Positions 1,445-20,530 are shown, counted from the stretch's first letter. The stretch: 22,105 nucleotides of DNA from a virus (IMGVR_UViG_2671180609_000024), one strand, 5' to 3'. Numbers and translations: made by a program. Notes: generated by a model not told the origin, from the letters alone.

Positions 1445-1458
1445 TTTAAATCAATAAG

Positions 1459-2592: not shown

Positions 2593-2607
2593 CTGCCCTT
2601 CTTCAGG
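2593..2607 (-). promoter_or_regulatory. nutL boxB-like hairpin (GCCCTGAAGAAGGGC on the minus strand)
   Basis: Plus strand reads GCCCTTCTTCAGGGC, the reverse complement of the lambda nutL boxB; it lies between the PL-like promoter and the N fragment, as in lambda. Confidence 0.75.
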
Positions 2608-2664
2608 GCTTAATTTTTAAGAGCATCACCTTCATGGTGGTTAGTGCGTCCTGCTGATGTGCTT

Positions 2665-2693
2665 GGTATCACCGCTAGTGGTATTTGTGTCAA
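2665..2693 (-). promoter_or_regulatory. Lambda PL-like promoter (-35 TTGACA, 17-bp spacer, -10 GATACC) firing toward N' and int
   Basis: Minus strand reads GATGTTGACACAAATACCACTAGCGGTGATACCAAGCACATCAGCAGG, near-identical to the lambda PL core (TTGACATAAATACCACTGGCGGTGATACT). Confidence 0.75.
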
Positions 2694-2727
2694 CATCGCC
2701 AGAGATAATTTATCACCGCAGATGGTT
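2667..2727. promoter_or_regulatory. Three lambda-type CI operator sites (OL1-, OL2-, OL3-like 17-mers)
   Basis: TATCACCGCTAGTGGTA (2667-2683), CAACATCGCCAGAGATA (2691-2707), TATCACCGCAGATGGTT (2711-2727); each within one mismatch of lambda OL1/OL2/OL3 as I recall them, with lambda-like spacing. Confidence 0.8.
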
Positions 2728-2908
2728 ATCTGTATGTTTTTTATATAGATTTATTTTTTGCAGGGTTGTGTGGCTTGGGAGGTGATCGAGAGATCAGAAT
2801 TGCGTTGTTTAGTGAGTTGCACCTATTAATTTTAAAATAAATACAATTGGTATCGATGAATTACAGTTGGTGGGCTGTTGGTGAGTAATTTTATTCAGGG
2901 TGATTTAT

Positions 2909-3352
2909 ATGGACGAATATGTTTATAGCGCAAGGCATAATGCTTTTTTCCCTGTGGATATGATTGATAAATATAAATCAGAGGGATGGGATTTATCAGA
3001 CGCTAAGGAAGTAAATCAAAATATTATCAGTGAGTTTATGGCTGAACCGCCACAAGGAAAAATCCGTATTGCCGGAGATGATGGGCTGCCTGCGTGGGCA
3101 GATATTCCTCCACCCACGCATGAAGAGCTTATTGAAATTACTGAATCAGAAAGACAGCTACTAATTAACCAGGCCAACGAATACATGAACAGTAAGCAAT
3201 GGCCCGGTAAAGCGGCTATTGGTCGTCTGAAAGGTGACGAACTGACGCAATATAATTTGTGGCTGGATTATCTGGACGCACTGGAGCTGGTCGATACTTC
3301 CGGTGCGCCAGATATTGAATGGCCTACGCCTCCGGCAGTTCAGGCCAGATGA
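2909..3352 (+). CDS. tfa: Tail fibre assembly protein (Tfa family)
   Basis: C-terminal Tfa signature LELVDTSGAPDIEWPTPP (compare lambda Tfa VDTSTAPDIEWP). Likely start is the ATG at 2909; the listed ORF begins at an upstream GTG at 2900. Confidence 0.8.
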   Translation: MDEYVYSARHNAFFPVDMIDKYKSEGWDLSDAKEVNQNIISEFMAEPPQGKIRIAGDDGLPAWADIPPPTHEELIEITESERQLLINQANEYMNSKQWPGKAAIGRLKGDELTQYNLWLDYLDALELVDTSGAPDIEWPTPPAVQAR

Positions 3353-3917
3353 CATCCGGCGCGGTGCTGGTATCTGTTGCCGTCACCGCGTCAATGTAAT
3401 CCAGCACGGCGTTAAGTCGGGTTGTTTCTGCCTGAGTCAGTTTCCGTCCGGCCTGTAACTTCAGCTGAATCAGACTAATGGAAGCCATTGCTGCATCAAT
3501 CAGTGATTGGCGCTGTGCTTCTGCCGCGTCTACTGCGGCACTGTGTTGTGCCTCAGTGTCTGTCACCCATTTCTCACCATCCCATTTATCGTATGGCGTT
3601 AACGGTGAAATCGTGACATAACCGTCTTTGATGGCACCGATATAATCCACTGTAACAGCTGCGCCATTTTCGATTGAGTAAACAGTCTCATTGCGATGGT
3701 CTTCTTCATGGCTCCATCCCTTACCTGTAAATACTGCCACTCTTCCCGGAATGTTTTCGCCAGGGTCAATACCAGTGGAACAGGCGGGCATACTTACGCC
3801 AGTATTAATATATTCATCAGACCAGCCCGTATACTCAGATGTTTCAGCATCATAATAAAAACAACGCATATCGCCCGGCACTGTAGCCAGCCCATTTTCA
3901 TCAAAAACAGGTTTCAT
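3324..3917 (-). CDS. Tail fibre assembly protein, alternative copy in inverted orientation (Tfa')
   Basis: C-terminus ...DYIDAVTATDTSTAPDVIWPELPEA carries the same Tfa signature; convergent with the plus-strand tfa, as in Mu G / P1 C / e14 P invertible segments. Confidence 0.8.
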   Translation of the reverse strand: MKPVFDENGLATVPGDMRCFYYDAETSEYTGWSDEYINTGVSMPACSTGIDPGENIPGRVAVFTGKGWSHEEDHRNETVYSIENGAAVTVDYIGAIKDGYVTISPLTPYDKWDGEKWVTDTEAQHSAAVDAAEAQRQSLIDAAMASISLIQLKLQAGRKLTQAETTRLNAVLDYIDAVTATDTSTAPDVIWPELPEA

Positions 3918-4414
3918 TATTTAGCCCTCACCAGAAAGTTAAATGCAATATTTCGCGGTCTGACTGCAACAAAATTCACACCATCACCCACAGAGTTACT
4001 GGTGAAATTAAATCGTGAAAATCCTGGCTGATTTCCGGCGATGCCATCATGAAAGTTAATTGCGTGTCCCGCACCTTCGCCTATATTCCCGGCAAACTGA
4101 GAAAAGTTTGTAGCTGCCTGCCAGCTTAATAATTCGCGACCACCGTCTGCACCTCGCCCGTCATCCCAGATACGAATGAAATCACCGCGGGCTTCAGGTA
4201 ATACCAGCGAAGGAAACACTTTCGCCAGCACAGGATAATCAGTGGCAGAGAATTTCGCGCCGTTGAACTTCAAAAACACCATACAGGACCAGCTGTCGAT
4301 TACAGTATTTGGCATTGCAGCGGACGGCCAGAAGAACGGAACGCCAATAGCTGGAGCACCTTCTCTCAAACCAACGTTTATGAAAATGCAGAAATAACGA
4401 GCAAATGGCATCAT
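3917..4414 (-). pseudogene. Tail fibre C-terminal variable-segment fragment (Stf'-like); no constant N-terminal tail-fibre part in the window
   Basis: Gly/Asn/Phe-rich ORF immediately upstream of, and coupled to, tfa' (3917 overlap); its 5' end contains the recombinase crossover-like site. By position it is the alternative variable exon of an invertible tail-fibre gene. Confidence 0.6.
4361..4386. promoter_or_regulatory. Candidate Hin/Gin/Pin-type crossover site (hix/gix/pix-like 26-mer)
   Basis: TTCTCTCAAACCAACGTTTATGAAAA matches hixL (TTCTTGAAAACCAAGGTTTTTGATAA) at about 19 of 26 positions; about 55 bp upstream of the invertase start, where crossover sites lie in known systems. Confidence 0.5.
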
Positions 4415-4440
4415 TCCTGCTTTTGTCAGGGAGATCTACC

Positions 4441-4995
4441 ATGCTTATTGGCTATGTACGTGTGTCAACAAATGACCAGAACACAGATCTACAACGTAAT
4501 GCGCTGAACTGTGCAGGATGCGAGCTGATTTTTGAAGACAAGATAAGCGGTACAAAGTCCGAAAGGCCGGGACTGAAAAAACTGCTCAGGACATTATCGG
4601 CAGGTGACACTCTGGTTGTCTGGAAACTGGATCGGCTGGGGCGCAGTATGCGGCATCTGGTCATTCTGGTTGAGGAGTTGCGCGAACGTGGCGTTAATTT
4701 TCGCAGCCTGACGGATGCTATTGATACCAGTACCCCAATGGGGCGCTTTTTCTTTCATGTGATGGGGGCCCTGGCTGAAATGGAACGAGAACTGATTGTT
4801 GAACGAACAAAAGCTGGACTGGAAGCTGCTCGCGCACAGGGACGAATTGGTGGACGTCGTCCCAAACTTACACCAGAACAATGGGCGCAGGCCGGACGAT
4901 TAATTGCAGCAGGAATTCCTCGCCAGAAGGTAGCGATCATCTATGATGTTGGTGTATCGACACTGTATAAGAAGTTTCCGGCCGGAGATAAATGA
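4441..4995 (+). CDS. pin: Serine-type DNA invertase, Pin/Hin/Gin/Cin family
   Basis: MLIGYVRVSTNDQNTDLQRNAL... resolvase/invertase catalytic domain with the active-site Ser in YVRVST, plus a C-terminal HTH. SD GGGAG 7 nt upstream of the ATG at 4441; the listed ORF begins 12 codons upstream. Confidence 0.9.
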   Translation: MLIGYVRVSTNDQNTDLQRNALNCAGCELIFEDKISGTKSERPGLKKLLRTLSAGDTLVVWKLDRLGRSMRHLVILVEELRERGVNFRSLTDAIDTSTPMGRFFFHVMGALAEMERELIVERTKAGLEAARAQGRIGGRRPKLTPEQWAQAGRLIAAGIPRQKVAIIYDVGVSTLYKKFPAGDK

Positions 4996-5052
4996 AACCG
5001 TAGCACGTCGTATGCAAGATCGTGCTGCGGTTTATGCTTACCACTTGAAGAT

Positions 5053-5922
<870 letters not shown>

Positions 5923-6006
5923 CTAACCCTTTGAATTTACATAGCGCAAAAAGATACCTTTCCTCATAATGTGAGCTAATTTTATGTTTCGTTTGATGAT
6001 CGGGTC

Positions 6007-6067
6007 GGTCTCGAAAACCGGAGTAGGGGCAACTCTACCGGGGGTTCAAATCCCCCTCTCTCCGCCA
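6007..6067 (+). pseudogene. 3' fragment (about 61 nt) of a tRNA-Ser gene (serU-type) - an att-site remnant, not a functional tRNA
   Basis: GGTCTCGAAAACCGGAGTAGGGGCAACTCTACCGGGGGTTCAAATCCCCCTCTCTCCGCCA matches the anticodon-arm-to-3'-end of E. coli tRNA-Ser(CGA) as I recall it; upstream sequence does not form the acceptor or D arm. Confidence 0.8.
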
Positions 6068-6649
6068 CTTTATCAATGACTTATCTCCCGACTTCCCGTC
6101 TTGCTTTTCCTAAACAGAACAATCGTAGAATATTCTTGAAGGGTTAGATCGTCACTGTTTTCTGTTCGATACTGTGACATTCAGCACTTGATTCGCTATG
6201 GATCTGACAGGAAGGTTTTGAGCGAAAATCTGCAGTTATTCAGTCGTTTTCTTATCGGTCACCATTATTCTTTTAGACATTGATCCTACAAAGCTGCCGC
6301 AAAGTTGGTGGTGGGAACTGAAGTTGCGTAGAGAAGGGGTCAATACCCGGAGGCAAACATGGGCTGGCAAAAGTGTAGCGGTATTAGGCGCAGCTATTTA
6401 GCCTAGTTATGTTTTATGAAAACTTGATATCATATAAGTGTCTTACTTATTGGCTGTAAATAAGTTTTTCCTAAGGAATTGTTTCTTGAGTATCATTTGT
6501 AACTGTAACGGAATTTATAATCCTTTGCTTTATTGTTACGGTATTTTTTATCACACCCTATTTTTAGTGGTTTTTTATACTGAAGTTTGGCAAAGTGAAC
6601 TTTATATACATATACTTCATCCTGGTTTCAGTTAAATTGGGGGGATGAT

Positions 6650-7393
6650 ATGGCAACTACATGTTCAGTTATATTGATTTTGGAGTCCTTTGATGTTTAT
6701 TTCGGAAAAGAGAGTGTGTTTCTGGAGAGAGGTTCATCTGTACTTGTCGACTCTAGCTCTAGAGATTTTTTCCTGACATATCCTGAAAGAGTGATAGTGG
6801 CGGATTTTGGCGCTGAGTTTATTAGTCGCTATTTGAAAGCTAATAACTTAAGGGATATTTCTGATTGTAGGGAATATCCATCTTATTTAAAAATAAACTT
6901 TGCTGACTTCAGTTTAATTAAAGGATTAATTAGTTGGGCTAATCACTGTGCTGAATACATAGAAATTTTTGATGAGTCTATTGCTTTTACATGTCTCTCT
7001 GCATTTTCTTCTGAAAAACAATTTGGAGTATTTCTGTTTGGATGTTTGAAAAGCACAGGGGCTAAAGTTAAAACGATTATTCATACGGATTTATCTGCAC
7101 CATGGCGTCTTAAGGATATATCATCAAGATTATATCTCAGCGAAAGTTTACTAAAGAGGAAATTGAAAGAAGAGGGGGTATCATTCAGTAAGATCATACT
7201 TGATGAGAGGATGCAAATGGCTGAATATTTACTCAGCACTCGTTGTTATCCTATTAGTAAAGTAGCTAAGGTCTGTGGTTATGCCAGTGTCTCATACTTT
7301 ACTTATGTATTTAGACGTTATTTTGGTGTTTCTCCAAGTCAATACTCTCAGAGGAGTTCAGAAAGTAAAATTCTTACTCACCAGGGAATCTGA
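6650..7393 (+). CDS. AraC/XylS-family transcriptional regulator (AppY/GadX/Rns-like)
   Basis: C-terminal dual-HTH AraC domain (WRLKDISSRLYLSESLLKRKLKEEGVSFSKIILDERMQMAEYLL ... VCGYASVSYFTYVFRRYFGVSPSQY) aligns by eye to AppY. Very AT-rich gene with a long AT-rich leader; SD GGGGGATGA before the ATG. Confidence 0.85.
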   Translation: MATTCSVILILESFDVYFGKESVFLERGSSVLVDSSSRDFFLTYPERVIVADFGAEFISRYLKANNLRDISDCREYPSYLKINFADFSLIKGLISWANHCAEYIEIFDESIAFTCLSAFSSEKQFGVFLFGCLKSTGAKVKTIIHTDLSAPWRLKDISSRLYLSESLLKRKLKEEGVSFSKIILDERMQMAEYLLSTRCYPISKVAKVCGYASVSYFTYVFRRYFGVSPSQYSQRSSESKILTHQGI

Positions 7394-7395
7394 TC

Positions 7396-7872
7396 ATTGT
7401 TCTTGCCCCCTTATTTCCAGACAGGGGGGGTATCTTAAGTTAACGTTACCCGCTGACGTCGATATTCTCGCGGAGAGCGATAACCCAACGCACTGTGCGG
7501 ATGGTTTTCATTGTAATGTTCGATCGCCACTGCAAGATTATGCAATGCCGTTCTTACATTCGGTTTCGGCATGAACGCGATGTAGTCTTCCTTCATCGTT
7601 TTCACGAACCTTTCTGCAATTCCATTACTCTGAGGACTGCTGATTGCCGTTGTGCAGGGCTCCAGATTCAACTCTCTGGCGAACTGCCGTGTTTCATGCG
7701 CTCTATACGCTGAACCGTTATCTGTCAGCCACTGGATGGACTGTTCCGGTACTTTATCGCCAAAGCGTTTTTCTATCGCTCCTAACATGACATCCTGCAC
7801 TGTCGCTTTATCGTAACCTCCCGTGCTTGCGGCCCAGTCTATGGCTTCACGATCGCAACAGTCCAGGGCGAT
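7396..7872 (-). mobile_element. IS2-like (IS3-family) element remnant: 3' part of the orfB transposase plus a terminal inverted repeat; 5' truncated
   Basis: Translation ...[38 protein letters not shown]...[18 protein letters not shown] matches the IS2 InsD C-terminal region as I recall it. Terminal sequence around 7396-7420 (revcomp CCCCCCCTGTCTGGAAATAAGGGGGCAAG) resembles an IS2 end. In-frame stop at 7873-7875. Confidence 0.8.
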
Positions 7873-8147
7873 TCATCTGGGCCAATCCTTGCTCATAACA
7901 GGCATTCACTTCAGTCATGGCAGAAAGGTATGCATGCTGGAGAAGTCGTGAAAGAAAAGAAGACTGCTGCGCCGTTTGTCGTCACGTTTATCTTCATTGG
8001 CTATGCAAGTCGTAATACAAGGTGGGACAAAACTGAGACACATAAGGCCTCGCAATGGCTTGCAAGGCTTTACATGTTTTGATGTGGTGGGACGTGTGAG
8101 CGCAGTGTTGATGGGGTAATGCTTTGAATTAGAAGCGGATTCTTATA

Positions 8148-8193
8148 ATTCGTAATGCGAAGGTCGTAGGTTCGACTCCTATTATCGGCACCA
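8148..8193 (+). repeat. Direct repeat of the tRNA-Thr 3' end (46 bp, exact): att junction between element 1 and the P4-like element
   Basis: ATTCGTAATGCGAAGGTCGTAGGTTCGACTCCTATTATCGGCACCA is identical to positions 1399-1444 of the full tRNA gene. Confidence 0.9.
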
Positions 8194-8355: not shown

Positions 8356-9537
8356 ATGCCTTTAAACGATATGCAGATTCGCCGCGCTAAGCCTGAAGCT
8401 AAAGCCTATACATTTGGAGATGGGCTAGGGTTGTCATTACTTATAGAACCTAATGGAAGCAAGAGTTGGCGGTTCCGCTATCGCTATGCCGGCAAACCCA
8501 AAATGATCTCGCTTGGTGTTTACCCAACGATCACCCTTGCCGATGCTCGTTCCCGTCGTGATGAAGCTCGAAAACTTGTGGCAGAAGGAAAGAACCCTAG
8601 TGAGGTTCGAAAAGAGCAAAAGCTAGCTATGCAAACAGAGTCAGAGAACGCCTTCGAAAAGATAGCCAGAGAGTGGCATCAACTTAAATCTGCTAAATGG
8701 TCGGCGGGATATGCATCAGACATCATGGAAGCGTTTAAGAACGACATTTTTCCTTATGTCGGAACAAGGCCTGTGGGAGAGATTAAACCGCTAGAGCTGC
8801 TGAACGTTCTGCGTAAAATTGAGAAACGTGGTGCGTTGGAGAAAATGCGCAAAGTGCGGCAGCGTTGCTCCGAAGTGTTTCGCTACGCAATTGCAACGGG
8901 TAGGGCGGAGTACAATCCTGCGGCTGATCTCTCCAGCGCTCTCGAAGTACACCAATCCAATCATTTCCCATTCCTAAAAGCTGATGAGATACCTGATTTT
9001 CTACGTGCCTTAGAGGGTTACTCCGGGAGTAAGCTTGTCCAGATAGCCACGAAATTACTGATGATTACGGGTGTGAGAACCATCGAATTACGCGCGGCAT
9101 TATGGCAAGAATTTGATCTGGATAACGCTATTTGGGAAATTCCTGCTGAAAGGATGAAAATGCGTAGGCCACATCTTGTGCCCTTATCATCTCAAGCGGT
9201 AGATTTACTCAATGAACTCAAGATCATGACAGGGAACTATCGTTATGTTTTTCCAGGGCGGAACGATCCGAATAGGCCAATGAGCGAAGCGAGTATAAAT
9301 CAAGCCATTAAGCGTATTGGGTATGGAGGAAAAGTCACTGGACATGGTTTTCGTCATACCCTTTCTACAATCCTGCATGAGCAAGGTTTTGAGAGTGCTT
9401 GGATTGAAATCCAGTTGGCTCATGTAGATAAAAATTCTATTAGGGGGACTTATAACCATGCTCAATATTTTAGTGGAAGGAAGTCTATGATGGACTGGTA
9501 CAGTAATTTGATATTTGAAAGACTAAAAAGGAGTTAA
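8356..9537 (+). CDS. int: P4-type tyrosine integrase (N-terminal arm-binding domain + catalytic domain)
   Basis: N-terminus MPLNDMQIRRAKPEAKAYTFGDGLGLSLLIEPNGSKSWRFRYRY is the classic P4/CP4-type integrase start; C-terminal HGFRHT ... Y catalytic motifs. Immediately follows the tRNA-derived repeat and reads away from it. Confidence 0.92.
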   Translation: MPLNDMQIRRAKPEAKAYTFGDGLGLSLLIEPNGSKSWRFRYRYAGKPKMISLGVYPTITLADARSRRDEARKLVAEGKNPSEVRKEQKLAMQTESENAFEKIAREWHQLKSAKWSAGYASDIMEAFKNDIFPYVGTRPVGEIKPLELLNVLRKIEKRGALEKMRKVRQRCSEVFRYAIATGRAEYNPAADLSSALEVHQSNHFPFLKADEIPDFLRALEGYSGSKLVQIATKLLMITGVRTIELRAALWQEFDLDNAIWEIPAERMKMRRPHLVPLSSQAVDLLNELKIMTGNYRYVFPGRNDPNRPMSEASINQAIKRIGYGGKVTGHGFRHTLSTILHEQGFESAWIEIQLAHVDKNSIRGTYNHAQYFSGRKSMMDWYSNLIFERLKRS

Positions 9538-9540
9538 TTT

Positions 9541-9957
9541 GTGTCTCAACCACTTTCGGAAATATTGACATGGGATGATGAACAATGGGAGGTATTTGTC
9601 CATGATTGGCTTATTGTCTGTAAATCAGATGATTACCCGTGGAGCGAACGTTTGGGAGGAGCTGGAGATAAAGGTAGAGACGTTGTTGGATATAAATCGG
9701 ATCCTAACGTAGAAGGTTATTCTTGGGATAATTATCAATGCAAACTGTACAAAAAAAGTTTAGGGTTCTCTGATGTTGTAGTTGAGTTTGGAAAACTTAT
9801 CTATTTTACTCTGAATGGTGATTATCCCATCCCTCAGAAGTACTTTTTTGTGGCACCCTATGATTTATCTACTACATTTTCTAATTTATTGAAAAATAAA
9901 AACGAGCTTAAAAAAGCAGTCCTTGATTCATGGGATTCAGCAATTTCAAAAAAATAA
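9541..9957 (+). CDS. Cargo gene 1: small protein with a PD-(D/E)xK (Mrr-like) nuclease motif; possibly the N-terminal part of a longer protein (see findings)
   Basis: GTG start 7 nt after SD AAGGAG and 3 nt after the int stop. Motifs GGAGDKGRDVVGY and, about 20 aa later, YQCKLYKK (D ... QxK) look like a restriction-endonuclease-like core. Very AT-rich. Confidence 0.6.
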   Translation: MSQPLSEILTWDDEQWEVFVHDWLIVCKSDDYPWSERLGGAGDKGRDVVGYKSDPNVEGYSWDNYQCKLYKKSLGFSDVVVEFGKLIYFTLNGDYPIPQKYFFVAPYDLSTTFSNLLKNKNELKKAVLDSWDSAISKK

Positions 9958-10547
9958 CTAAAAAGATTGATATTCCATTAGATGATGAAATAAAAAAATA
10001 TATTGAGGATTTTGATTTTAGTATTTTTTACTCTCTACCCTTATCATTGATTTTAAATGATATTGCAAATACACACCTTTATTTTAAGTACTTTAACGAG
10101 CTGTATGTCGTGAGAATCCCTCCAAATGAAATTCCAACATACAATTCAAAAAAAGAGTCTGTATATGTTAATGCACTGCTTCAAGCCTATTCAGAGCATG
10201 GAAATAAAACTTATAGTTCTTTCTTAGAGCTTGATGATCCATACAGACGACACTTTAATAATAGTAGAAATGATTTTTATTTTGCATCTTCGCTTGAGGT
10301 TTTTGTCCGCGAAGTATTTAAAGATGATGTATTCAAAGCATTGAAATGTTACATTTCATCTTCAATTGAACCCGTCTTTTATGAAGACCATAATTATGCA
10401 TTTATTAGGTGTAATGCAGTCTTGAAGCAGGCTGTTCTGACACCAATTGCACATTCAGTACTATCAAAAATATGTGAAGCAAATGATAAAAAAGGAATAT
10501 GCCATCATTTGGTTAATGATGGTGAAGTAATTTGGACGGTGAGATAA
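9930..10547 (+). CDS. Cargo gene 2: hypothetical protein (205 aa as listed); may be the C-terminal part of gene 1 joined by a shift in an A7 run
   Basis: ORF overlaps gene 1 by 28 nt in another frame; both frames pass through the A7 homopolymer at 9948-9954. No domain recognised by eye. Confidence 0.5.
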   Translation: MGFSNFKKITKKIDIPLDDEIKKYIEDFDFSIFYSLPLSLILNDIANTHLYFKYFNELYVVRIPPNEIPTYNSKKESVYVNALLQAYSEHGNKTYSSFLELDDPYRRHFNNSRNDFYFASSLEVFVREVFKDDVFKALKCYISSSIEPVFYEDHNYAFIRCNAVLKQAVLTPIAHSVLSKICEANDKKGICHHLVNDGEVIWTVR

Positions 10548-11005
10548 TGGTTAGAATTTATAATTCAAGTTTAGAAGTGGCATGTCGAATGGCGAAAGTG
10601 CTCGTCGCTATTTATCCTTCTTCATTAAGCCTTGAACGGCTTATTTGTTTTGATTTTATTTTAGTAAATCTTAAGGATTTTTTACCTGAAGAGATTAGTC
10701 TTCATCCTCCAATACCCCGTAGAGATGCTCAGTTAGCCCTAAAACGAGAGATTGTTTTAGAATCATTGGCTTTGTTGCAAGGCTATGAACTAGCCTCAAA
10801 AATTTATACACATCGTGGTTTTGTATATAAAGCTTCTGAAAAAACATATGCATTTACAAATTCTCTACATAATGAATATGTTGCGCAGATGGAGCATAAT
10901 ATAAATTTGGTGGTTAAGTTATATAGTGATATTCCTGATGAGCAGTTGCAATCAATTATAAAAAATAAAATTGGCAAATATGATATGGAATTTAATTATG
11001 AATGA
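10547..11005 (+). CDS. Cargo gene 3: hypothetical protein (about 152 aa)
   Basis: ATG overlaps the gene-2 stop (TAATG at 10545-10549); its stop overlaps the next gene's start. Same AT-rich composition. Confidence 0.55.
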   Translation: MVRIYNSSLEVACRMAKVLVAIYPSSLSLERLICFDFILVNLKDFLPEEISLHPPIPRRDAQLALKREIVLESLALLQGYELASKIYTHRGFVYKASEKTYAFTNSLHNEYVAQMEHNINLVVKLYSDIPDEQLQSIIKNKIGKYDMEFNYE

Positions 11006-11630
11006 CAATTTTTTTACGTTCAGAAAAATAAAGGTAACCGGATTCAATAAATTAGATGCTATAATTGAATTTGGTTCTAAATTGACTATTTTATATGGTG
11101 GTTCTGACTCTGGAAAAACATACATATATTATTTGATTCGATATTTATTAGGGAGTGAAAAACTAAAAAATAAAGATATCGATCATGCTCAAGGTTATGA
11201 TTTAGCCTATCTGGAATTTAATTTTCAAGGTAGGGTAATGACAATTGAGAGGTCTCTTCAGGATAGCGCCCATTACAGATTATATGATTCGAGCATTGAA
11301 AATGTTAGTGAAGCTAATCTGTTGATGGTTTTTTCCAAAAGTGCTTCGTCTAAAAAGAGTTTTTCATCATACTTTTATGGTAGGTTGAATTTCAAAGAGG
11401 CTAAAGTAAGAACAAACTTAAGTAATACTCTTCATAAATTTAATCTTAATAATGTTTTTGAATTTTTTTGTATTGATGAATTAAGAGTGTTAACTGAGAA
11501 GTCGTTAATTCTTTCTGATATTCCTAGCGAGGAGACAAAAAGAAAGTCTGAATTTAAATTCCTTTTAACTCAGAGAGATGATACTAACTCCTTAGCAGAA
11601 AAACCAAATAAAAAAGCAAGATATTTTTAA
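10998..11630 (+). CDS. Cargo gene 4: N-terminal head of an SMC/Rad50/RecN-like ABC ATPase (Walker A)
   Basis: FRKIKVTGFNKLDAIIEFGSKLTILYGGSDSGKTYIYYLIRYLLG is the canonical SMC-like N-terminal strand-loop-Walker A arrangement (GxxxxGKT). The ORF ends at a TAA inside a T5/A7 tract and the next ORF continues in the same frame. Confidence 0.65.
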   Translation: MNDNFFTFRKIKVTGFNKLDAIIEFGSKLTILYGGSDSGKTYIYYLIRYLLGSEKLKNKDIDHAQGYDLAYLEFNFQGRVMTIERSLQDSAHYRLYDSSIENVSEANLLMVFSKSASSKKSFSSYFYGRLNFKEAKVRTNLSNTLHKFNLNNVFEFFCIDELRVLTEKSLILSDIPSEETKRKSEFKFLLTQRDDTNSLAEKPNKKARYF

Positions 11631-11660
11631 AAAAATCAAATTGCAAATATTTATGAGGAA

Positions 11661-12251
11661 TTGAAAGCGCAATTAATTTATCCTGAATATGATCAAGTCA
11701 TTGTTTCAAGAGAACTTGAGAAAGTAGAGCAAGATATTGAATCATCGAAAGATATATTGAAAGGTATTGTTGATGCACTTGATGATAAGAAGCAATTATT
11801 AAAAGAGTTAAGTGATGAATTATATTCAATCAGTGACAGGGAAAAATACTTATCATTACTCATTGAAAGATTTAGTCTTCTTAAAGACCAATACTTTATA
11901 GATCTACAAAGAATAGATGTTGTATCACAGGCGAATTTCTATTTAAATAATTTTGCAGATATTTATTGTGAGTTCTGTAATACACCGCAAAAAAAAGAAA
12001 ATGAAATATCATATGATGATTGTTTTTTGTCGTGTAATGCAGAAAAATTGAAAATCAAAAGCCAGCTGAAAGGATTAATTGAATCAATCGGATCTAATGT
12101 TCGCGAACATGAATTAATTATGTTAAGAAAAAATGATGTTAATGAAATTTATCAATCAGAAAAAAGTGATTTTAAGACGTTAGAAGATAAAAATATAAAA
12201 CAATACATTCATCTCTTGAATCACTTTATGAATATAAAGACAATCTTTTAA
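11661..12251 (+). CDS. Cargo gene 5: coiled-coil segment of the SMC/Rad50-like ATPase with a Cys4 cluster (CxxC-x14-CxxxC); probably not independently translated
   Basis: Heptad-rich sequence (EKVEQDIESSKDILKGIVDALDDKKQLLKELSDELYSI...), cysteines in YCEFCNTPQ...DDCFLSCN. Same frame as gene 4, separated by a single TAA; the listed start is a TTG with no convincing SD. Confidence 0.5.
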   Translation: MKAQLIYPEYDQVIVSRELEKVEQDIESSKDILKGIVDALDDKKQLLKELSDELYSISDREKYLSLLIERFSLLKDQYFIDLQRIDVVSQANFYLNNFADIYCEFCNTPQKKENEISYDDCFLSCNAEKLKIKSQLKGLIESIGSNVREHELIMLRKNDVNEIYQSEKSDFKTLEDKNIKQYIHLLNHFMNIKTIF

Positions 12252-12817
12252 TGGATCACACAAAACATAGCATTCTATCTTCATTACAAGATAAAGAAGA
12301 TGATGTTGACGAACTTAAATACTCCGCCGAGGACTTTGACTCCTTAACAGTAGCTGATTTGTATGATATAGAAATAGCGATGCAAGACTTTTTGAATGAT
12401 ATAAATTTTGAAAATTCTAAAGATAACAAAGTGCGATTTGACGAAGATACATATGACTTTAATATCAATGGGAAACGCCGAGGAATGTTTGGTAAAGGTA
12501 CCCGTGCAGTAATGCATGCTATATTTACCATTTGCTTTGCGGAATTTTTATCAAGAAAAGGGAATCCATTCATTGGATTTGTTGTGCTTGATAGTCCATT
12601 AGTGACGCACTTTGATAAAGATAGAGGGGGTTCTCTATCGGATGTTAATAGCGTCAGTCTCAGTGATTCATTTTATCACGCATTAATCAAAAGGGACTAT
12701 AATTTCCAGATTGTAATTCTTGAGAATAAAGGTCCGACGTTCCAAATAAAAATTAATGATGCAAATAAAATCCATAACTTAAATAAGAATGGAAGCTCTG
12801 GTTTTTATCCTGTTTAA
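12251..12817 (+). CDS. Cargo gene 6: C-terminal head of the SMC/Rad50-like ABC ATPase (signature-like region, Walker B/D-loop, H-loop)
   Basis: FGKGTRAVMHAIFTICFAEFL followed by PFIGFVVLDSPLVTHFD (hydrophobic strand + D, Walker B-like) and a downstream His (FYHAL). ATG overlaps the gene-5 stop (TAATG). Confidence 0.6.
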   Translation: MDHTKHSILSSLQDKEDDVDELKYSAEDFDSLTVADLYDIEIAMQDFLNDINFENSKDNKVRFDEDTYDFNINGKRRGMFGKGTRAVMHAIFTICFAEFLSRKGNPFIGFVVLDSPLVTHFDKDRGGSLSDVNSVSLSDSFYHALIKRDYNFQIVILENKGPTFQIKINDANKIHNLNKNGSSGFYPV

Positions 12818-13175
12818 TACATTAAAAATATAACTGCTAATTGGGGTGCTCGAAATTATATTTCGTTTCGAGCGCTCAGTTCATTTCTAAATAATTTGCA
12901 AAATTATTTTGGGTACTTTCGCCTCTACACTTCCTTCGGGTGGTTCCACAATAATGGATCTCACCGGCGTTTGATATTTTATAATCTAACCCCTTAGCGC
13001 GCGCAGCCCCCCACGCCTGCTCGCTTCGCTTAACAGACTGGTTTTCATGCATTCCGCAAATCGTCTCAGAAGCCACCACACAAGGGCTTTCGCGTCAAAA
13101 ATGGTGCATGAGAATCATGCGTTTTCATGCGCTATAGACATGCACTCATGCGCTCTCAGGCCAGCCAGGGAAAAG

Positions 13176-13226: not shown

Positions 13227-13499
13227 TCAGACAGGAATTTGCTGACGGCTTGACAGCTTTGACGCGGAGCCATAGCGATTGAGAGTTTGCTGTTGTTTTT
13301 CCGGCATTTGTGCTTTCTCTGATTCCTGTTCATTGCGCCGGGGCTTCATGATTATCGTATCCACACTTTCCAGTGCGGTAAATGTGTAGGAACATTCAAG
13401 ATTCTGGCACTGATACCATGAGCGTTTAACCGATGGTGCTTCATAGGCGGAGGTTCTGGCGTGTGCCGTCGTACCGCATTCGGGACATTTAAGTGCCAT
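13227..13499 (-). CDS. Ogr/Delta-family zinc-finger late-gene activator (single-domain, 90 aa)
   Basis: MALKCPECGTTAHARTSAYEAPSVKRSWYQCQNLECSYTFTALESVDTIIMKP aligns by eye with P2 Ogr (CPxC..AHARTS ... QCQN.xCS.TF..ESV). Confidence 0.85.
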   Translation of the reverse strand: MALKCPECGTTAHARTSAYEAPSVKRSWYQCQNLECSYTFTALESVDTIIMKPRRNEQESEKAQMPEKQQQTLNRYGSASKLSSRQQIPV

Positions 13500-13504
13500 T
13501 AATA

Positions 13505-14056
13505 TTACTCCTGCATGCCGTTAATGTAATCCAGACGTTGCTGAAAGCGCAGTTGTTGTGCAGGGGTGTAAGAGCTCTGGCAATCACGAACCATCATGGG
13601 GTCAGGCATCACACCGGATTCATCCAGAATCATACGATAATCCCCGGCAATTTCAGGCGGTGTTATTGCCAGCTGGCGAACCAGAGCATTGCGTAATATA
13701 CGGGACGCAACGTCAACCCCTCCGCGCCCCTTCAGGAACGGAGCCAGTGCAGATGTCAGGGCTGCTCCATTCGCCTGCATAAAATTGCTGAGAGCGTCTT
13801 CTGTGCAGGCCTCCATCAGTTGATGCTGCGAGTAAATGCATTCGCGCGCAGCACAGTTAATTTGCCATTTCAGCACATCCAGATGTTCCCGCTGTAATTC
13901 GAGCTGTCGAGCATAATCTGCTGGTTTTTCCATGGCAGTGAGGAGTGATTCTATCTGTTGTTCAACGGCTTTTCGGCTCTCACTATGTCCAGCCCACAGA
14001 ATACGGGCATTTCTAAAACTGATAAGCGCTTGGTCTGGAGTGACTCGGGCCATCAT
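13505..14056 (-). CDS. psu: Psu-like polarity suppression / capsid decoration protein
   Basis: Segment LDVLKWQINCAARECIYSQHQ ... LSNFMQANGAALTSALAPFLKG ... TPAQQ resembles P4 Psu as I recall it (KWQ.N.AA ... FMQ.HG.AL..ALAP.L.G ... TPAQ). Size 183 aa against 190 aa. Confidence 0.7.
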   Translation of the reverse strand: MMARVTPDQALISFRNARILWAGHSESRKAVEQQIESLLTAMEKPADYARQLELQREHLDVLKWQINCAARECIYSQHQLMEACTEDALSNFMQANGAALTSALAPFLKGRGGVDVASRILRNALVRQLAITPPEIAGDYRMILDESGVMPDPMMVRDCQSSYTPAQQLRFQQRLDYINGMQE

Positions 14057-14805
14057 ACTGCTTTCTCCTTCTCAGCACGTTCCTGACGAACCTTCATTTT
14101 ATGCATAGCTGCTGGAGAGAGTTTATTACTGAAATCCAGACGGGCCGCATAATCCGGGGCAACTCCCGCCAGTTTAAACACGGGGTCCTGTTCGGGCATC
14201 GCATCGTTAGTCAGAGCCGGTCTGGTGATATGTTTATGAATAAAATCTTTCAGCAGTGTGTCCGGGTCATTAACTGAATGCACCACACCGACAACTGCGC
14301 TGGCTTCCCTGCCCATTGTTGATTTGAGCAGGCTTAGTGTCTGGATTAGTGCTTTTCCATGCGACTGCATAAAATCTTCCCAGATTTGTTTTGCGCGAAT
14401 ACCCACAAGGGTGTCGTGCGCGTGGATATACTTTCCGGCTAATTCCGCAGCCTCCTGCGGCAAAAGTGCATTTTCGCTTTCCTGAGCCGCCAGCAGCTCA
14501 TCAAAATCCTCAAGCGTTTCTCGTCCCAGCGCAATTTCCGTGCGCAGTTTTTTCATTTCCTTTGAGACTACGCCCTGACTTTCACGAAATAGCGTGCGCC
14601 ACTCCTCATTCAGGGCGTTCGTCGTGGCTTCCATTTCAGCGCGGCGCTGGCGGATTGTCGCAATATTATCCGCTGCCGCTTTTTGCTGACGACGTGCTTC
14701 AAGCCATGCAGATTTGGTGGCATTCACTTTCTCAAGCGCCTGTTGCGTCGAAACAGGGATAGAAATTTCAACGATCGGGTTATTGTTCTGTTCTGGGATT
14801 GTCAT
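14053..14805 (-). CDS. sid: Probable Sid-like external scaffold (capsid size determination) protein
   Basis: 250-aa alpha-helical, Ala/Glu/Gln-rich protein, first gene of the minus-strand operon and overlapping psu by 4 nt; size and position match P4 Sid (244 aa). Called by context, not by a recognised motif. Confidence 0.5.
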   Translation of the reverse strand: MTIPEQNNNPIVEISIPVSTQQALEKVNATKSAWLEARRQQKAAADNIATIRQRRAEMEATTNALNEEWRTLFRESQGVVSKEMKKLRTEIALGRETLEDFDELLAAQESENALLPQEAAELAGKYIHAHDTLVGIRAKQIWEDFMQSHGKALIQTLSLLKSTMGREASAVVGVVHSVNDPDTLLKDFIHKHITRPALTNDAMPEQDPVFKLAGVAPDYAARLDFSNKLSPAAMHKMKVRQERAEKEKAV

Positions 14806-15738: not shown

Positions 15739-15999
15739 ATGCGTAATATTTCTGTGTCTGCGCCAGCTCCTGCTGCGCCATTATTTCCTGTATCGAACCA
15801 TCATGAGCGATTTTTACGCCTGCCTGAGGTGATGCACTTATGCGGGTTGTCCCGTTCGACCGTTTACGACCTGATCAGCCGCGATGCGTTTCCGAAGCAG
15901 ATCCCGCTTGGCGGTAAAAATGTCGCCTGGGCACAGTCTGAGGTCAGCGCATGGATGGCGGACCGCATCAGCGCCCGTGGGCGGGGATGTGATGCATGA
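15739..15999 (+). CDS. AlpA/Vis-family small DNA-binding regulator (excisionase-like HTH)
   Basis: [48 protein letters not shown] matches the AlpA/Vis HTH pattern. SD AGAGGG 7 nt before the ATG. Confidence 0.8.
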
Positions 16000-16549
16000 T
16001 GATACCTGCATACATTAAATACCTTTATTCTGGCTTGCTTACTGTCGTCATTTCCAGGTATAGTTTTTCCGCTGTCGCAAAATCGGCAGCCGGAATTGGC
16101 GTTCCGTATAACTTATTGGCGACAATTGACGCCCCTTGCGTCTTTTTTTACGTCGTAGCTCAGGCACAACCATTTTCAGGGCTGTGGTGTTTATGCTTAC
16201 ACCATGGTTCTATCGAGATAATGGTAGTCCGGGCGGGGCAGCCTTCGGGCTGGCCGGTTTCCAATAAGGCCGGTTACGCCAACCCCGTTCGGGCTGCCAC
16301 CAGTGAAATTGGCGTTTCCGGTGGTAGCAATAACCGCTACTTATTGGAGGCTGCCATCATGGCTACAATCCTCACCCCGTCACACCCGCAATATGTCTTT
16401 GTGTTTGCCGCAATCCGCCGTGCTGACACTCACCCCCGCATCTGTATGCTTCGCACTGTCTCCTGCGATGAGCGTTCCGCGCGCCGTTTGCTAGTCCGAG
16501 ATTATGTACTCTCCCTTTCTGCACGGCTGCCTGCCGGGGAGGTGACGCT

Positions 16550-16771
16550 ATGAACCAGTTTGAGATTTCCTACGACGATGTTGTAAGGCTGAAACATTTA
16601 CGCAATGTGGGTGAGTATGTAACTGGCATGGCAGCCCTGCAGGACTGTTATGAAAAGCCAGCAGGTGCCCAATGCGAACAACTGGTTTCCCTCATTTATC
16701 TGATGACAGAGCAACTGGATGGAGTGGTGCAACGCTGCCATGACGACCTGATGAATGCGGAGGTGGCCTGA
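16550..16771 (+). CDS. Hypothetical small protein of the P4-like early operon (73 aa)
   Basis: SD GGGAGGTGA 4 nt before the ATG; ATGA-type overlap with the next ORF; same operon as alpha. Function unknown (positional analogue of P4 epsilon/orf151). Confidence 0.55.
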
Positions 16772-17094
16772 TGATATGCTGTGAATCTCTTCTGGCACTT
16801 CGTGCCGCTCTGTATCGCCGTGCCGTTGCCTGTGCCTGGCTGGCTCTAAGCAATCATCAGGAACGTTATTCCGGCCTGACGCTCGCTGAACTTGAAGATG
16901 CCATAGCCCGCGAGCTGGAAGGGTTCTATCTGCGCCAGCATGGGCAGCAAAGAGGGCTGGAAATTGCCTGCGCGTTGCTTTCGGATCTGATGGAGTCGGG
17001 GCCGCTTAAAGCCTGTCCGGTTCTCTCACTGCTCGGAATGACGGTCATGGATGAACTTTGTTCCCGTCACCTCAACAAACCAGCGCTGCACTAA
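16771..17094 (+). CDS. Hypothetical protein of the P4-like early operon (107 aa)
   Basis: SD GGAGGTGG upstream; start overlaps the previous stop; ends 13 nt before the alpha start. Confidence 0.55.
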
Positions 17095-17107
17095 GGAGGG
17101 CCGCACA

Positions 17108-19441
17108 ATGTCAGGAATGAAAGTTAGCCAGGCTGAGAAAGCAGCTCGGGGTCACTGGTCAAGAATTTTACCTGCGCTGGGCGTAAATGTACTGAAAAAT
17201 CGGCACCAGCCCTGCCCGGTCTGTGCCGGGAAAGACCGCTTTCGATTTGATGACCAGGAAGGGCGGGGAACGTGGTTCTGTAACCAGTGCGGGGCAGGTG
17301 ATGGCCTGGCGCTTGTAAGTAAAGTACTGGATGTAGGCATTAGTGAAGCGGCAGACAGAATAAACGGCATTATCGGAAACCTGCTGCCAGTATCTCAGGG
17401 AATGCTTGAATCTGGTTCTCCTGAAAAAGAGGACGGGAGAAAAGCTGCAGCAGTGCTGGCTGCCCGTTTGTTTGATAAGTCCCGCCAGACCACTGGCAAT
17501 GCCTATCTGACGAGTAAAGGGTTTCCTGCACTGCCTTGCCGGGAATTAACCGCTATGCATAAAGTCGGTGGTGTGGCATTTCGCGCGGGAGATCTTGTCG
17601 TTCCATTGTATGCAGATGGAGAGCTGGTAAATCTGCAGTTAATCAACGCTAATGGGGGCAAATGCTTCCTTAAAGGCGGTCAGGTTAAGAATGCCTTTTA
17701 CCTGGTTGAAGGTACTGCCAAAGCAGCCAAACGGCTCTGGATAGCGGAAGGATATGCCACCGCACTTACTATCAACTATCTGACTGGCGATGCTGTCATG
17801 GTGGCCTTTTCGTCCGTCAATTTCCTTTCCCTGGCGAGCATTGCCTGCAGTGAGTACCCAACGCACCAGATAATTATTGCTGCTGACCGCGATCTCAACG
17901 GTGCGGGGCAAACAAGGGGCGCAGCTGTTACCGGGGCCTGCAATTGCACAATGGCGCTCCCGCCTGTGTTTGGTGACTGGAACGATGCATTCACGCAAAA
18001 CGGCGAAGAAGCCACCCGGCATGCAATTCATGAAGTAATAAAACCAGCTGTTGCCAGCCCCTTCGACACAATGAGCGAAGCTGAATTTACCGCGCTGAGC
18101 GTCAGCGAAAAAGCGCAGAGGGTAGTGGATCACTATAAAAATTCACTGGCAGTAGACCCGAACGGGCAGCTCCTTTCACGCTATGAGGCGGGGGCCTGGA
18201 AAGTTATCTATTACGCCGATTTTGCCCGTGATGTCGCTGCGCTGTTTCAGCGCCTCGACGCACCTTTTTCATCCGCGAAAATTGCGTCTCTCGTGGAAAC
18301 CCTCAAACTGATCGTTCCGCAACAGCAGAATCCGGCGCGGCAACTTATCGGATTTCGCAACGGTGTGCTCGATACCCGGACAGGATTGTTCAGCCCGCAC
18401 GATAAGAAGCACTGGTTACGTACGCTGTGCGAGGTGGATTACACGCAGCCCGTTGACGGTGAGTCACTGGAAACCCATGCCCCGGCATTCTGGCGCTGGC
18501 TGGATCGTGCCGCAGGTTTTAATCCTGAAAAACGGGACATTATTCTGGCTGCATTGTTTATGGTGCTGGCTAACCGTTATGACTGGCAGCTGTTTCTGGA
18601 GGTCACTGGCCCTGGCGGAAGTGGAAAGAGTATTCTTGCTGAAATAGCAACCATGCTGGCGGGTGAAGATAACGCGACCTCGGCAACCATTGAAATGCTT
18701 GAGTCGCCAAGAGAACGAGCTGCGTTAATAGGTTTTTCACTGATTCGACTTCCCGACCAGGAAAAGTGGAGCGGTGACGGGGCCGGACTAAAAGCCATCA
18801 CTGGCGGCGATGCGGTATCCGTTGATCCCAAATATCAGAACGCCTATTCAACCCACATCCCGGCGGTCATCCTGGCTGTGAACAATAATCCGATGCGCTT
18901 CACTGATCGTAGTGGTGGAGTTTCACGCCGAAGGGTGATCCTGCATTTCCCCGACCAGATAGCCCCGGAGGAACGCGATACCCAGCTCAAAGAGAAAATT
19001 GCCAGTGAGCTAGCGGTGATTGTTCGCCAGCTTATGCAGCGTTTCAGCGACCCAATGAGTGCCAGGACATTGCTTCAGTCACAGCAGAACTCCGATGAAG
19101 CGCTCACCATCAAACGTGATGCTGATTCAGCTTTTGATTTTTGCGGCTACCTTGAGGTCCTACCTGACACCACGGGCATGTTTATGGGGAACGCTAATAT
19201 TGTTCCACGTCAGCCTCGAACTTACCTCTACCATGCCTATCTGGTCTACATGGAGGCTAACGGCTATAAAAATACGCTCAGTCTGACCATGTTTGGCAAG
19301 GGGCTACCGTTAATGCTCAAGGAATATGGGCTGCAGTATGAGAAACGACGGACCAATCAAGGAATGCAGACTAATCTGGCCCTAAGAGAGGAAAGCAATG
19401 CTGACTGGTTGCCAAAATGCGATGAGTTTGCAGCGAAATAA
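17108..19441 (+). CDS. P4 alpha-like bifunctional primase-helicase (777 aa)
   Basis: SD AAGGAGGG before the ATG at 17108. N-terminal zinc-binding primase motif CPVCAGKDRFRFDD...GTWFCNQCGAGDG; central P-loop EVTGPGGSGKSIL (D5-type helicase Walker A). Length equals that of P4 alpha (777 aa). The listed ORF starts 19 codons upstream. Confidence 0.9.
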   Translation: MSGMKVSQAEKAARGHWSRILPALGVNVLKNRHQPCPVCAGKDRFRFDDQEGRGTWFCNQCGAGDGLALVSKVLDVGISEAADRINGIIGNLLPVSQGMLESGSPEKEDGRKAAAVLAARLFDKSRQTTGNAYLTSKGFPALPCRELTAMHKVGGVAFRAGDLVVPLYADGELVNLQLINANGGKCFLKGGQVKNAFYLVEGTAKAAKRLWIAEGYATALTINYLTGDAVMVAFSSVNFLSLASIACSEYPTHQIIIAADRDLNGAGQTRGAAVTGACNCTMALPPVFGDWNDAFTQNGEEATRHAIHEVIKPAVASPFDTMSEAEFTALSVSEKAQRVVDHYKNSLAVDPNGQLLSRYEAGAWKVIYYADFARDVAALFQRLDAPFSSAKIASLVETLKLIVPQQQNPARQLIGFRNGVLDTRTGLFSPHDKKHWLRTLCEVDYTQPVDGESLETHAPAFWRWLDRAAGFNPEKRDIILAALFMVLANRYDWQLFLEVTGPGGSGKSILAEIATMLAGEDNATSATIEMLESPRERAALIGFSLIRLPDQEKWSGDGAGLKAITGGDAVSVDPKYQNAYSTHIPAVILAVNNNPMRFTDRSGGVSRRRVILHFPDQIAPEERDTQLKEKIASELAVIVRQLMQRFSDPMSARTLLQSQQNSDEALTIKRDADSAFDFCGYLEVLPDTTGMFMGNANIVPRQPRTYLYHAYLVYMEANGYKNTLSLTMFGKGLPLMLKEYGLQYEKRRTNQGMQTNLALREESNADWLPKCDEFAAK

Positions 19442-19573: not shown

Positions 19574-20530
19574 TTATTTTTGAATTGATTTAAACATCCC
19601 ATCGAGTTGTAATTTATTTATGTCGGTTTTCTTTATGGCTTTAATTAAGTTTTCAATAACTTCCAAAGAAAAAATTACATCTTTCTTTTCAATTCTAACC
19701 CCCCCGTGGTGGCTGCAAGCATTAAGGATGTCCTTTGTAATTTCAACATCATTTTTCATTAATGGTTCATAGTCCAGAGCCTCAATAACAGAAACTAAAC
19801 TACCTAGCATTTGCTCTTGGTATTGAACGTTGTTTAAATGCATTATACGAATATTAACAAGCATGAGAATATATTCTAAATATCTCCTGGCAGTATTTCC
19901 TTTCTCTTGTAAAGAATCACGATCATATTCCTCAATACTCATGACTTCATTATGTAAAGAGGCTATTTTGTGCTCTGCTAATGAAATATTTATCGCATCC
20001 ATGAGGTTTCGTGAGAAGCCTGTAGATGTAACATGACCATTTGCGGGCCTTGTTAAAATACATGTAGTATAGCAATTTATATTTGGGGTCTGGATTGTCT
20101 CATTTACTCTTTTAACCGTTCTATAAACGTCTACCATATAAGAACCTGAGTTTTCAAATGAACATGAAGAGCATTTTGTATTATATATTCTATTTAGAGA
20201 TAACTGATTGTGATAGTATCCCTTTAAGAAAGCATATATAGTGTCATTAAACTCGACAAACACAACGGACTCAATATATATATGGAATTTATCATTGGGG
20301 TGCCACTCTAATTCAAGTCTTCTTGTAGAGTCATCAAAGGAAAAGTTTGAAATAAAATCCCAGTTACCTAAATCTATAAAATCAACGATATTTCTACCTG
20401 CACCATGGATATTTTTATTTATTAAAGTTGTGATTGAGTTTTTTATAATGTCCCAATCATGAATTTCATGATCGAATTTATTATTGATGGTTTCTTTTAT
20501 TTGATTGGAAAAGTTTGAATAACTAGTCAC
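19574..20530 (-). CDS. Orphan AT-rich cargo gene, hypothetical protein (318 aa), between alpha and the distal att remnant
   Basis: Long ORF with a GTG start preceded by a GAGG SD; strongly AT-rich, Asn/Ile/Lys-rich composition unlike the flanking P4-like genes. No domain recognised by eye. Confidence 0.6.
   Translation of the reverse strand: MTSYSNFSNQIKETINNKFDHEIHDWDIIKNSITTLINKNIHGAGRNIVDFIDLGNWDFISNFSFDDSTRRLELEWHPNDKFHIYIESVVFVEFNDTIYAFLKGYYHNQLSLNRIYNTKCSSCSFENSGSYMVDVYRTVKRVNETIQTPNINCYTTCILTRPANGHVTSTGFSRNLMDAINISLAEHKIASLHNEVMSIEEYDRDSLQEKGNTARRYLEYILMLVNIRIMHLNNVQYQEQMLGSLVSVIEALDYEPLMKNDVEITKDILNACSHHGGVRIEKKDVIFSLEVIENLIKAIKKTDINKLQLDGMFKSIQK

Follow-up and report, generated by a model that had tools for sequence, protein, structure and literature searches.

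What is the AT-rich block of six small open reading frames (ORFs) that directly follows the integrase gene in the viral sequence IMGVR_UViG_2671180609_000024? The block occupies bases 9541–12817 of the stretch analysed here (22,105 nt, hereafter the window). An original prediction, made by reading the DNA by eye, took it for an anti-phage system of Lamassu layout in the integrase-proximal hotspot of a P4-like satellite, and offered a known Lamassu subtype, an ABC-three-component (ABC-3C) system or a new family as its possible identity. The layout and its location held up, and the first two identities turned out to be the same thing, ABC-3C being the earlier or other name of type II Lamassu. 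The third did not hold: the block belongs to an already recognised short kind of Lamassu, probably the one with an Mrr effector. With a probability of roughly 80%, we read it as a short type II Lamassu, its effector Mrr-like, that was inactivated recently and is carried as hotspot cargo by the P4-like satellite Sp2 of Escherichia coli O157:H7 at thrW.

The six ORFs lie on the plus strand and are tightly coupled. ORF1 begins 3 nt past the integrase stop (9537), and the frames overlap at TAATG 10545–10549, by 8 nt at 10998–11005, and again at TAATG 12249–12253, all as first described. ORF3 starts at ATG 10547 and ORF4 at ATG 10998; the TTG codons at 10532 and 10971 are merely mechanical starts. 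The G+C fraction of the block is 0.309, compared with 0.45–0.52 in the satellite core genes (0.451 in int, 0.502 in delta–sid and 0.522 in the primase gene), so the island between the integrase and delta-psu-sid is as AT-rich as it had seemed. ORF4 and ORF5 share one frame with a single TAA between them, and the ORF1/ORF2 and ORF5/ORF6 junctions are each a −1 frame shift. Because every ORF has strong profile matches (PADLOC E-values 1.6e-21 to 8e-50), the ORFs are not chance frames. NCBIfam returned no useful match for any of the six. The assignments are as follows.

9541–9957, plus strand: lmuA 5′ fragment (ORF1, 138 aa, GTG start), Mrr-like PD-(D/E)xK nuclease domain; PADLOC LmuA PDLC03852, 9e-41.
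9930–10547, plus strand: lmuA 3′ fragment (ORF2, 205 aa), conserved C-terminal domain (ABC-3C CTD6); Pfam CTD6 PF20282, 7.7e-30; PADLOC PDLC03852, 3.9e-44.
10547–11005, plus strand: lmuC (ORF3, 152 aa), ABC-3C middle component 2; Pfam MC2 PF20288, 6e-30 (above cut-off); PADLOC LmuC PDLC03871, 2.5e-36.
10998–11630, plus strand: lmuB fragment 1 (ORF4, codons 1–210), N-terminal ABC ATPase head with Walker A GGSDSGKT at 11097–11120; PADLOC LmuB PDLC03863, 8.4e-50; Pfam AAA_23, 2.2e-7.
11631–12251, plus strand: lmuB fragment 2 (ORF5, listed as 11661–12251 from a TTG at 11661), ascending coiled coil, CxxC apex at 11967–11978 and part of the descending coiled coil, the last ~20 codons being out of frame; PADLOC PDLC03863, 1.6e-21.
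12251–12817, plus strand: lmuB fragment 3 (ORF6, 188 aa, codons 419–606), C-terminal ATPase head; PADLOC PDLC03863, 5.1e-37.

Profile hidden Markov model searches and fold comparison, applied to the ORFs and to repaired fusions or intact homologues, recovered both a nuclease fold and an ABC/SMC fold. ORF1 and ORF2 tile one PADLOC LmuA model (positions 10–140 and 141–333 of 336), confirming that genes 1 and 2 are one PD-(D/E)xK (Mrr-like) nuclease protein in two pieces. The homology of ORF2 to intact LmuA begins at about 9955, and the GTG start of ORF1 is also found in intact lmuA homologues. The motifs GAGDKGRDV (9658–9684) and YQCK (9733–9744), picked out at the outset, fall in nearly invariant alignment columns. 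Across 45 homologues the nearly invariant LmuA residues are G40, G42, D43, G45, R46, D47, Q66, C67, K68, E82, G84 and K85, and all are retained in the window. An AlphaFold model of an intact homologue, P0038 (mean predicted local distance difference test score (pLDDT) 94.2), had the solved LmuA chains 9nxx, 9hqx, 9ny1 and 9uxl as its top matches, followed by the nucleases Cap4, MspJI, FokI and EndoMS; the model thus supports a PD-(D/E)xK fold for the effector. The Mrr assignment rests on the motif, on these fold matches and on the 5 of 45 LmuA homologues that reach Pfam Mrr_cat (best 1.6e-6), ORF1 itself being sub-threshold. The variable N-terminal effector and conserved C-terminal domain of a Lamassu LmuA are therefore both present, though no longer fused in the window. 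PHROGs families also match 9541–9957 and 10547–11005 end to end. The profile of one of them, phrog_32369, spans 138 positions, just as many as the truncated ORF1 has residues, which makes it look like a family built on a pseudogene fragment.

Similarly, ORF4, ORF5 and ORF6 tile one PADLOC LmuB model (positions 3–199, 231–412 and 428–608 of 610), and the view of genes 4–6 as one SMC/Rad50-like ABC ATPase in three pieces is upheld. Besides the Walker A motif in ORF4, there are in ORF6 GKGTR (12491–12505), Walker B FVVLDS within FVVLDSP (12578–12598) and QIVILENKG (12707–12733), all in nearly invariant columns. The nearly invariant residues of LmuB (G34, S36, G39, K40, E161, C324, C327, G499, K500, G501, R503, D532, S533, P534, Q571 and N577) are all retained in the fragments. 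The Cys4 cluster proposed for the coiled coil survived in part: the C-x2-C at 11967–11978 is nearly invariant and a third Cys occurs in close relatives, but the fourth is unconserved. In a model of the 86%-identical intact LmuB P0001 (pLDDT 85.8), a head, a helix (233–318), an apex, a second helix (339–439) and another head follow one another; its top fold matches are the solved LmuB chains 9uxh, 9hqx, 9hqu, 9ux7 and 9nyg (E 1e-15 to 1e-12), then Rad50 and SMC. The published definition of short LmuB is a protein of ~600 aa with Walker B hhhhD[Q/S/T/E] and CxxC, and Mrr is among the listed LmuA effectors. At 606 aa, with a coiled coil between Walker A and a Walker B of the form hhhhDS, and with a single CxxC, the repaired protein matches this description. 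We also considered an ATPase of the Gabija GajA, Septu PtuA or PARIS AriA type and rejected it, as these gave only weak matches to the N-terminal head (E 1e-6 to 3e-3) compared with 8e-50 for LmuB. Their partners GajB, PtuB and AriB are not present alongside the cassette ATPase.

The small third protein expected of a Lamassu system is ORF3. This small middle component, encoded between lmuA and lmuB, is the sole intact gene of the cassette, and its length and its 1-nt and 8-nt overlaps are identical to those in intact cassettes. A metagenome protein, P0027 (344 aa), combines an MC2 domain with a segment 96% identical to the first third of LmuB; judged by its sequence, it looks like a lmuC–lmuB read-through fusion in another copy of the cassette.

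What did the cassette look like before it was broken? When the repaired proteins served as queries, LmuB turned up as one full-length chain of 606 aa in Proteus mirabilis (86%) and in Pantoea alhagi (74%), and LmuA as one chain of 334–337 aa in many Enterobacterales; every other homologue found likewise encodes single-chain LmuA and LmuB. Intact operons of 335, 152 and 606 aa occur in Pantoea alhagi CP019706.1 (L008), in two metagenome contigs (L009 and L010) and in a Proteus mirabilis island (L007). Those of L008, L009 and L010 occupy the identical slot (proA, integrase, cassette, delta-psu-sid; proA-thrW-int in Pantoea), so that comparison with P4-like hotspots elsewhere yielded uninterrupted operons in the matching position. 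These intact cassettes have the same three genes at a G+C fraction of ~0.31, and repaired LmuA, LmuC and LmuB share 92, 91 and 88% aa identity with Proteus and 86, 82 and 76% with Pantoea; they differ from the window in that their genes are uninterrupted. The satellite backbones around the intact cassettes have diverged from that of the window (psu 40%, sid 44% and alpha 68% aa identity), whereas the integrase is 92% identical to the one beside the intact cassette in L009. Gene calls of 201 aa in Pantoea alhagi (L008, 6543–7550) and 145 aa in Proteus mirabilis (L006, 6543–7550) had raised a suspicion of recurrent lmuA inactivation, but translation showed both genes to be intact, the caller having missed the GTG start. 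By this comparison, the original operon consisted of lmuA (335 aa), lmuC (152 aa) and lmuB (606 aa, with a short coiled coil and a CxxC apex).

Alignment with the intact copies located three lesions.

9948–9954, plus strand: lesion 1, an A7 run that has lost one base, shifting lmuA to the −1 frame after codon 138, with TAA at 9955–9957; DNA alignment with L007, L009 and L010.
11628–11630, plus strand: lesion 2, an in-frame TAA at lmuB codon 211 (TTA>TAA, T>A at 11629); Leu in O55:H7, Proteus and L009.
12189–12193, plus strand: lesion 3, an A5 run (Proteus has A6) from which one base is missing, so that lmuB goes out of frame at codon ~398, within the descending coiled coil; DNA alignment.

At the site of lesion 1, intact homologues read AAAGAAAA or AATAAAA. 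A T-run at 12246–12249 was also considered as the place of the ORF5/ORF6 frameshift, and alignment with intact homologues placed it in the A-run 12189–12193 instead. Undoing the three lesions restores a 335-aa LmuA and a 606-aa LmuB, exactly the lengths of the intact homologues. The six-ORF form is thus no architecture of its own but the mutational decay of a three-gene operon, only one of whose genes has an uninterrupted frame in the window.

The distribution of the lesions gives their order. Bases 9541–12817 recur with 100% identity in E. coli O157:H7 Sakai, in EDL933 and in ~300 further complete genomes of this serotype, and the cassette is carried by O157:H7 and O55:H7 only, in 309 of 5426 complete E. 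coli genomes. Lesions 1 and 3, both frameshifts, are common to O157:H7 and its sister lineage O55:H7. The stop of lesion 2 is found in O157:H7 only; O55:H7 has TTA (Leu) there, so that ORF4 and ORF5 form one 394-aa ORF, and has acquired its own extra 1-nt deletion at 12155–12160. This pattern indicates that the reading frames were lost before the O157:H7/O55:H7 split. When queries with restored A-runs were searched at both frameshift sites, 309 of 309 E. coli records matched with one gap and none perfectly, from which it follows that the frameshifts are fixed, being neither sequencing errors nor phase-variable states. No intact E. coli copy was found among 5.8 billion protein clusters. Because lmuA and lmuB are interrupted by the frameshifts at 9948–9954 and 12189–12193, fixed in all 309 records, and lmuB also by the TAA at 11628–11630, the window holds a pseudogenised member of the Lamassu family rather than a working one.

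The rates of change are consistent with recent decay. The ratio of nonsynonymous to synonymous substitution rates (dN/dS) against Proteus in the repaired frame is 0.10–0.12, like the 0.07–0.12 between intact copies, which indicates that the genes evolved as a three-gene system until recently. Of the 8 substitutions that the cassette has gathered since the O55/O157 split, 7 are nonsynonymous; over the same time, ~2.9 kb of adjoining satellite sequence gathered 2. An IS1203 lies inside the cassette in three O157:H7 strains (matches H1–H3; loci L004 and L005 are among the copies from other strains). In individual strains, A-runs at 9584, 11537 and 11989 have also lost one base, which may be either continuing decay or homopolymer sequencing errors.

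How would these lesions affect the machine? Published structures of Cap4-type systems describe an LmuA1B2C1 complex, DNA-end sensing and tetramers formed via the C-terminal domain, and all three components were needed in the Lamassu systems tested. By analogy, an intact LmuA1–LmuB2–LmuC1 complex would keep the nuclease inactive and monomeric through the LmuA C-terminal domain. LmuB would sense DNA ends, or phage replication intermediates or origins, with slow ATP turnover; LmuA would then be freed, tetramerise through its C-terminal domains, form the active site, cut DNA and abort infection. Lesion 1 would part the nuclease domain from the C-terminal domain that tethers and activates it. Lesion 2, the stop at codon 211, would cut the N-terminal ATPase head off the coiled coil, and lesion 3, at codon ~398, would break the descending coiled coil ahead of the C-terminal head. 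Under the Cap4-type model each lesion should disable the system, which is most likely dead. The data establish what the system is and which three lesions it has, together with their order and fixation; how the intact form works and that function has been lost are inferred.

Several points weigh against this reading. The mechanism is carried over from systems with Cap4 effectors, searches having found no structure of an Mrr-type Lamassu, and ORF1 scores below the cut-off against Pfam Mrr_cat (PF04471; E 0.2, 12.2 bits, cut-off 21). With only 8 substitutions since the O55/O157 split, the test of relaxed change has little power. All catalytic and nucleotide-binding residues are still in the fragments; ORF6 starts at a TAATG stop-start overlap (12249–12253) that could permit re-initiation; and the O55:H7 allele, which has the same two frameshifts without the stop, gave smaller T2, T4, T6 and RB69 plaques when cloned, with no catalytic-mutant control reported in the available portion of that paper (PMC11754643). 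The published plaque effect means that the broken system may not be fully inert. The last three points are also what speaks for fragments that still function as a multi-subunit 'Lamassu-var', assembling without covalent links to give some anti-phage defence, as do the rebuilding of Rad50 heads from separate N and C halves and the keeping of the cassette in 309 genomes. That retention at ≥99% identity, however, reflects the youth of the O157:H7/O55:H7 clone rather than selection, 7 of the 8 changes being nonsynonymous, and the two lineages carry different extra lesions, with an IS insertion in some strains. Judging from the solved systems, a nuclease domain cut loose from the LmuA C-terminal domain should stay unactivated, since that domain serves for its tethering as well as its tetramerisation. 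Moreover, no convincing ribosome-binding site precedes ORF2 or ORF5, and the O157:H7 allele is broken at one more place than the tested O55:H7 allele. A different study saw no protection from a comparable Lamassu variant of a P4 hotspot, and the split form is absent from the other homologues found, all of which encode LmuA and LmuB as single chains. We therefore regard a functional split system as improbable, though the least improbable of the alternatives.

The breaks might instead be read through or switched, the A-runs acting as slippery sites, in transcription or for a −1 shift of the ribosome, or as ON/OFF contingency tracts that give full-length proteins in some cells. Both frameshifts do lie in A-runs and both need a −1 shift, and the lmuA site is a perfect A_AAA_AAA heptamer with the stop codon next (9948–9957). 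Yet 0 of 309 records have a restored tract at either site, so the population shows no ON state. The runs, A7 and A5, are short, and intact homologues have interrupted sequences in their place (AAAGAAAA and GCTGAAA), which means that slipperiness is not a conserved feature of either site. The second one, T_AAA_AAT, departs from the canonical heptamer, and slippage cannot bypass the TAA at 11628–11630. Recoding or phase variation is accordingly very unlikely. Least credible, to the point of being negligible, are homopolymer sequencing or assembly errors in genes that are really intact: both indels are in homopolymer runs, and the few single strains with extra one-base A-run differences may hold errors, but the same three lesions recur in >300 complete genomes that were sequenced independently, the Sakai and EDL933 references among them, and one of the lesions is a base substitution. 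A related, doubtful proposal is that the cassette is not inert, in that the detached pieces assemble, or rare −1 slippage at A_AAA_AAA-TAA gives some full-length LmuA, resulting in a low-level T-even-specific defence such as that reported for the O55:H7 allele. If so, it would be a natural split Lamassu, revealing which covalent links are dispensable.

Related systems show both common and distinct features. The window shares with short type II Lamassu with an Mrr effector ('Lamassu-Mrr'; Millman et al. 2022, Haudiquet et al. 2025) the order lmuA-lmuC-lmuB, overlapping gene ends, an LmuA of nuclease plus C-terminal domain, an MC2 LmuC and an LmuB of ~600 aa; it differs in having lmuA in two and lmuB in three pieces by mutation. 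The Cap4-type Vibrio cholerae DdmABC and Salmonella LmuACB (9uxh, 9hqx, 9hqu, 9ny5 and 9nyg) are the best structural matches to the LmuA and LmuB homologue models and also have three components, but their effector is Cap4 rather than Mrr-like and sequence identity is merely 8–14%; V. cholerae LmuB has no zinc hook. Consistently, searches of PDB sequences with repaired LmuA, LmuB and LmuC and with an LmuA profile returned nothing meaningful, and the solved Lamassu chains were reached by fold comparison only. With Rad50/SbcC–Mre11/SbcD and SMC complexes LmuB shares a split ABC head, an antiparallel coiled coil and a CxxC hook, and Lamassu has been proposed to be SbcCD-derived; the coiled coil of LmuB is however much shorter, it has no Mre11-like partner, its Walker B reads DS instead of DE, and its gene sits in a mobile defence hotspot.

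The locus itself was already on record, contrary to the novelty that the original prediction implied. In RefSeq the ORFs go under the names 'ABC-three component system protein' and 'middle component 2', and the ATPase is flagged as a pseudogene in Sakai. The Domainator paper (PMC11754643) describes the cluster as the commonest content of the 'P4-like hotspot' (259 instances, '3 to 9 CDSs', that is, coding sequences) and names it Lamassu-var; the allele cloned there came from O55:H7 TB182A (CP038295 4116517–4120474). The paper treats Lamassu-var as a new, abundant variant and makes no mention of frameshifts. We confirmed that the O55:H7 locus is orthologous to that of the window: the two are 99.7% identical in nucleotide sequence, share both frameshifts and have integrase, delta, psu and sid as common neighbours. 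The O55:H7 locus differs in having TTA at 11629, hence five ORFs rather than six, and the extra deletion at 12155–12160. While both the kind of system and the locus were known, what is added here is that the 'variant' is a frameshifted standard system.

The surroundings of the cassette define the satellite and its borders.

1369–1444: thrW, tRNA-Thr(CGU).
8148–8193: exact 46-bp repeat of the thrW 3′ end, just before the P4-like integrase.
8356–9537, plus strand: P4-like tyrosine integrase, the left hotspot border; RefSeq intS/ECs_0289.
12844–12877, plus strand: terminator-like hairpin with a 13-bp stem, 27 nt past the last stop codon of the cassette, from a consensus scan only.
13227–14805, minus strand: delta (ogr/Delta), psu and sid, the right hotspot border; RefSeq annotation; Pfam Psu, 4.8e-42 and 7.1e-10.
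15996–16553: Ash.
17051–19441: alpha primase.
About 21064–21079: degenerate copy of the thrW 3′ end, at the far end of the satellite.

The order in the window is proA, thrW, a lambda-like prophage remnant, the 46-bp thrW copy, integrase, cassette, delta-psu-sid, ash and alpha primase. The cargo thus lies between int and delta-psu-sid, with ash and the alpha primase present and a tRNA gene as integration site, as in the hotspot of a P4-like satellite, and RefSeq annotates the Sakai counterpart as 'prophage Sp2, P4-like phage'. thrW and its two copies are as would be expected if the lambda-like remnant and the P4-like satellite had integrated there in tandem. A promoter scan gave 22 sites against 19.6 expected from shuffled sequence, and no promoter is claimed.

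Other features of the window lie outside the cassette. The lambda-like remnant between thrW and the satellite (1445–8147) spans ~6.7 kb in the window and 10.6 kb in Sakai (Sp1), and the difference between the window and the best-matching genomes is an IS1203; this region varies among O157:H7 strains and the Lamassu remnant does not. Within it, a GIY-YIG protein (5053–5877, minus strand) is matched near end to end by PD-T4-3 (PADLOC PDLC04031, 2.3e-140; Pfam LEM-3 GIY-YIG, 3.8e-14), and its gene appears to be an intact single-gene defence system adjoining the broken Lamassu. A second AT-rich block (G+C ~0.31), lying past the alpha primase towards the right-hand border of the satellite, is filled by a 318-aa ORF (19574–20530, minus strand; ECs_0304 in Sakai). 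This ORF has no match in Pfam, PADLOC, PHROGs or NCBIfam, and could be an uncharacterised cargo gene of the distal variable region.

The practical value of these results is a correction. Automated tools score the locus as a Lamassu-family system in nearly all O157:H7 genomes, and inventories of O157:H7 defences should mark it as probably inactive. A 2026 survey reported defence pseudogenes to be very rare in P4 hotspots and used this rarity to argue for a turnover in which systems are swapped before they decay; the cassette is a clear, datable member of that class. Finally, its repaired version and the intact Proteus and Pantoea copies would offer convenient Mrr-type Lamassu systems for testing.

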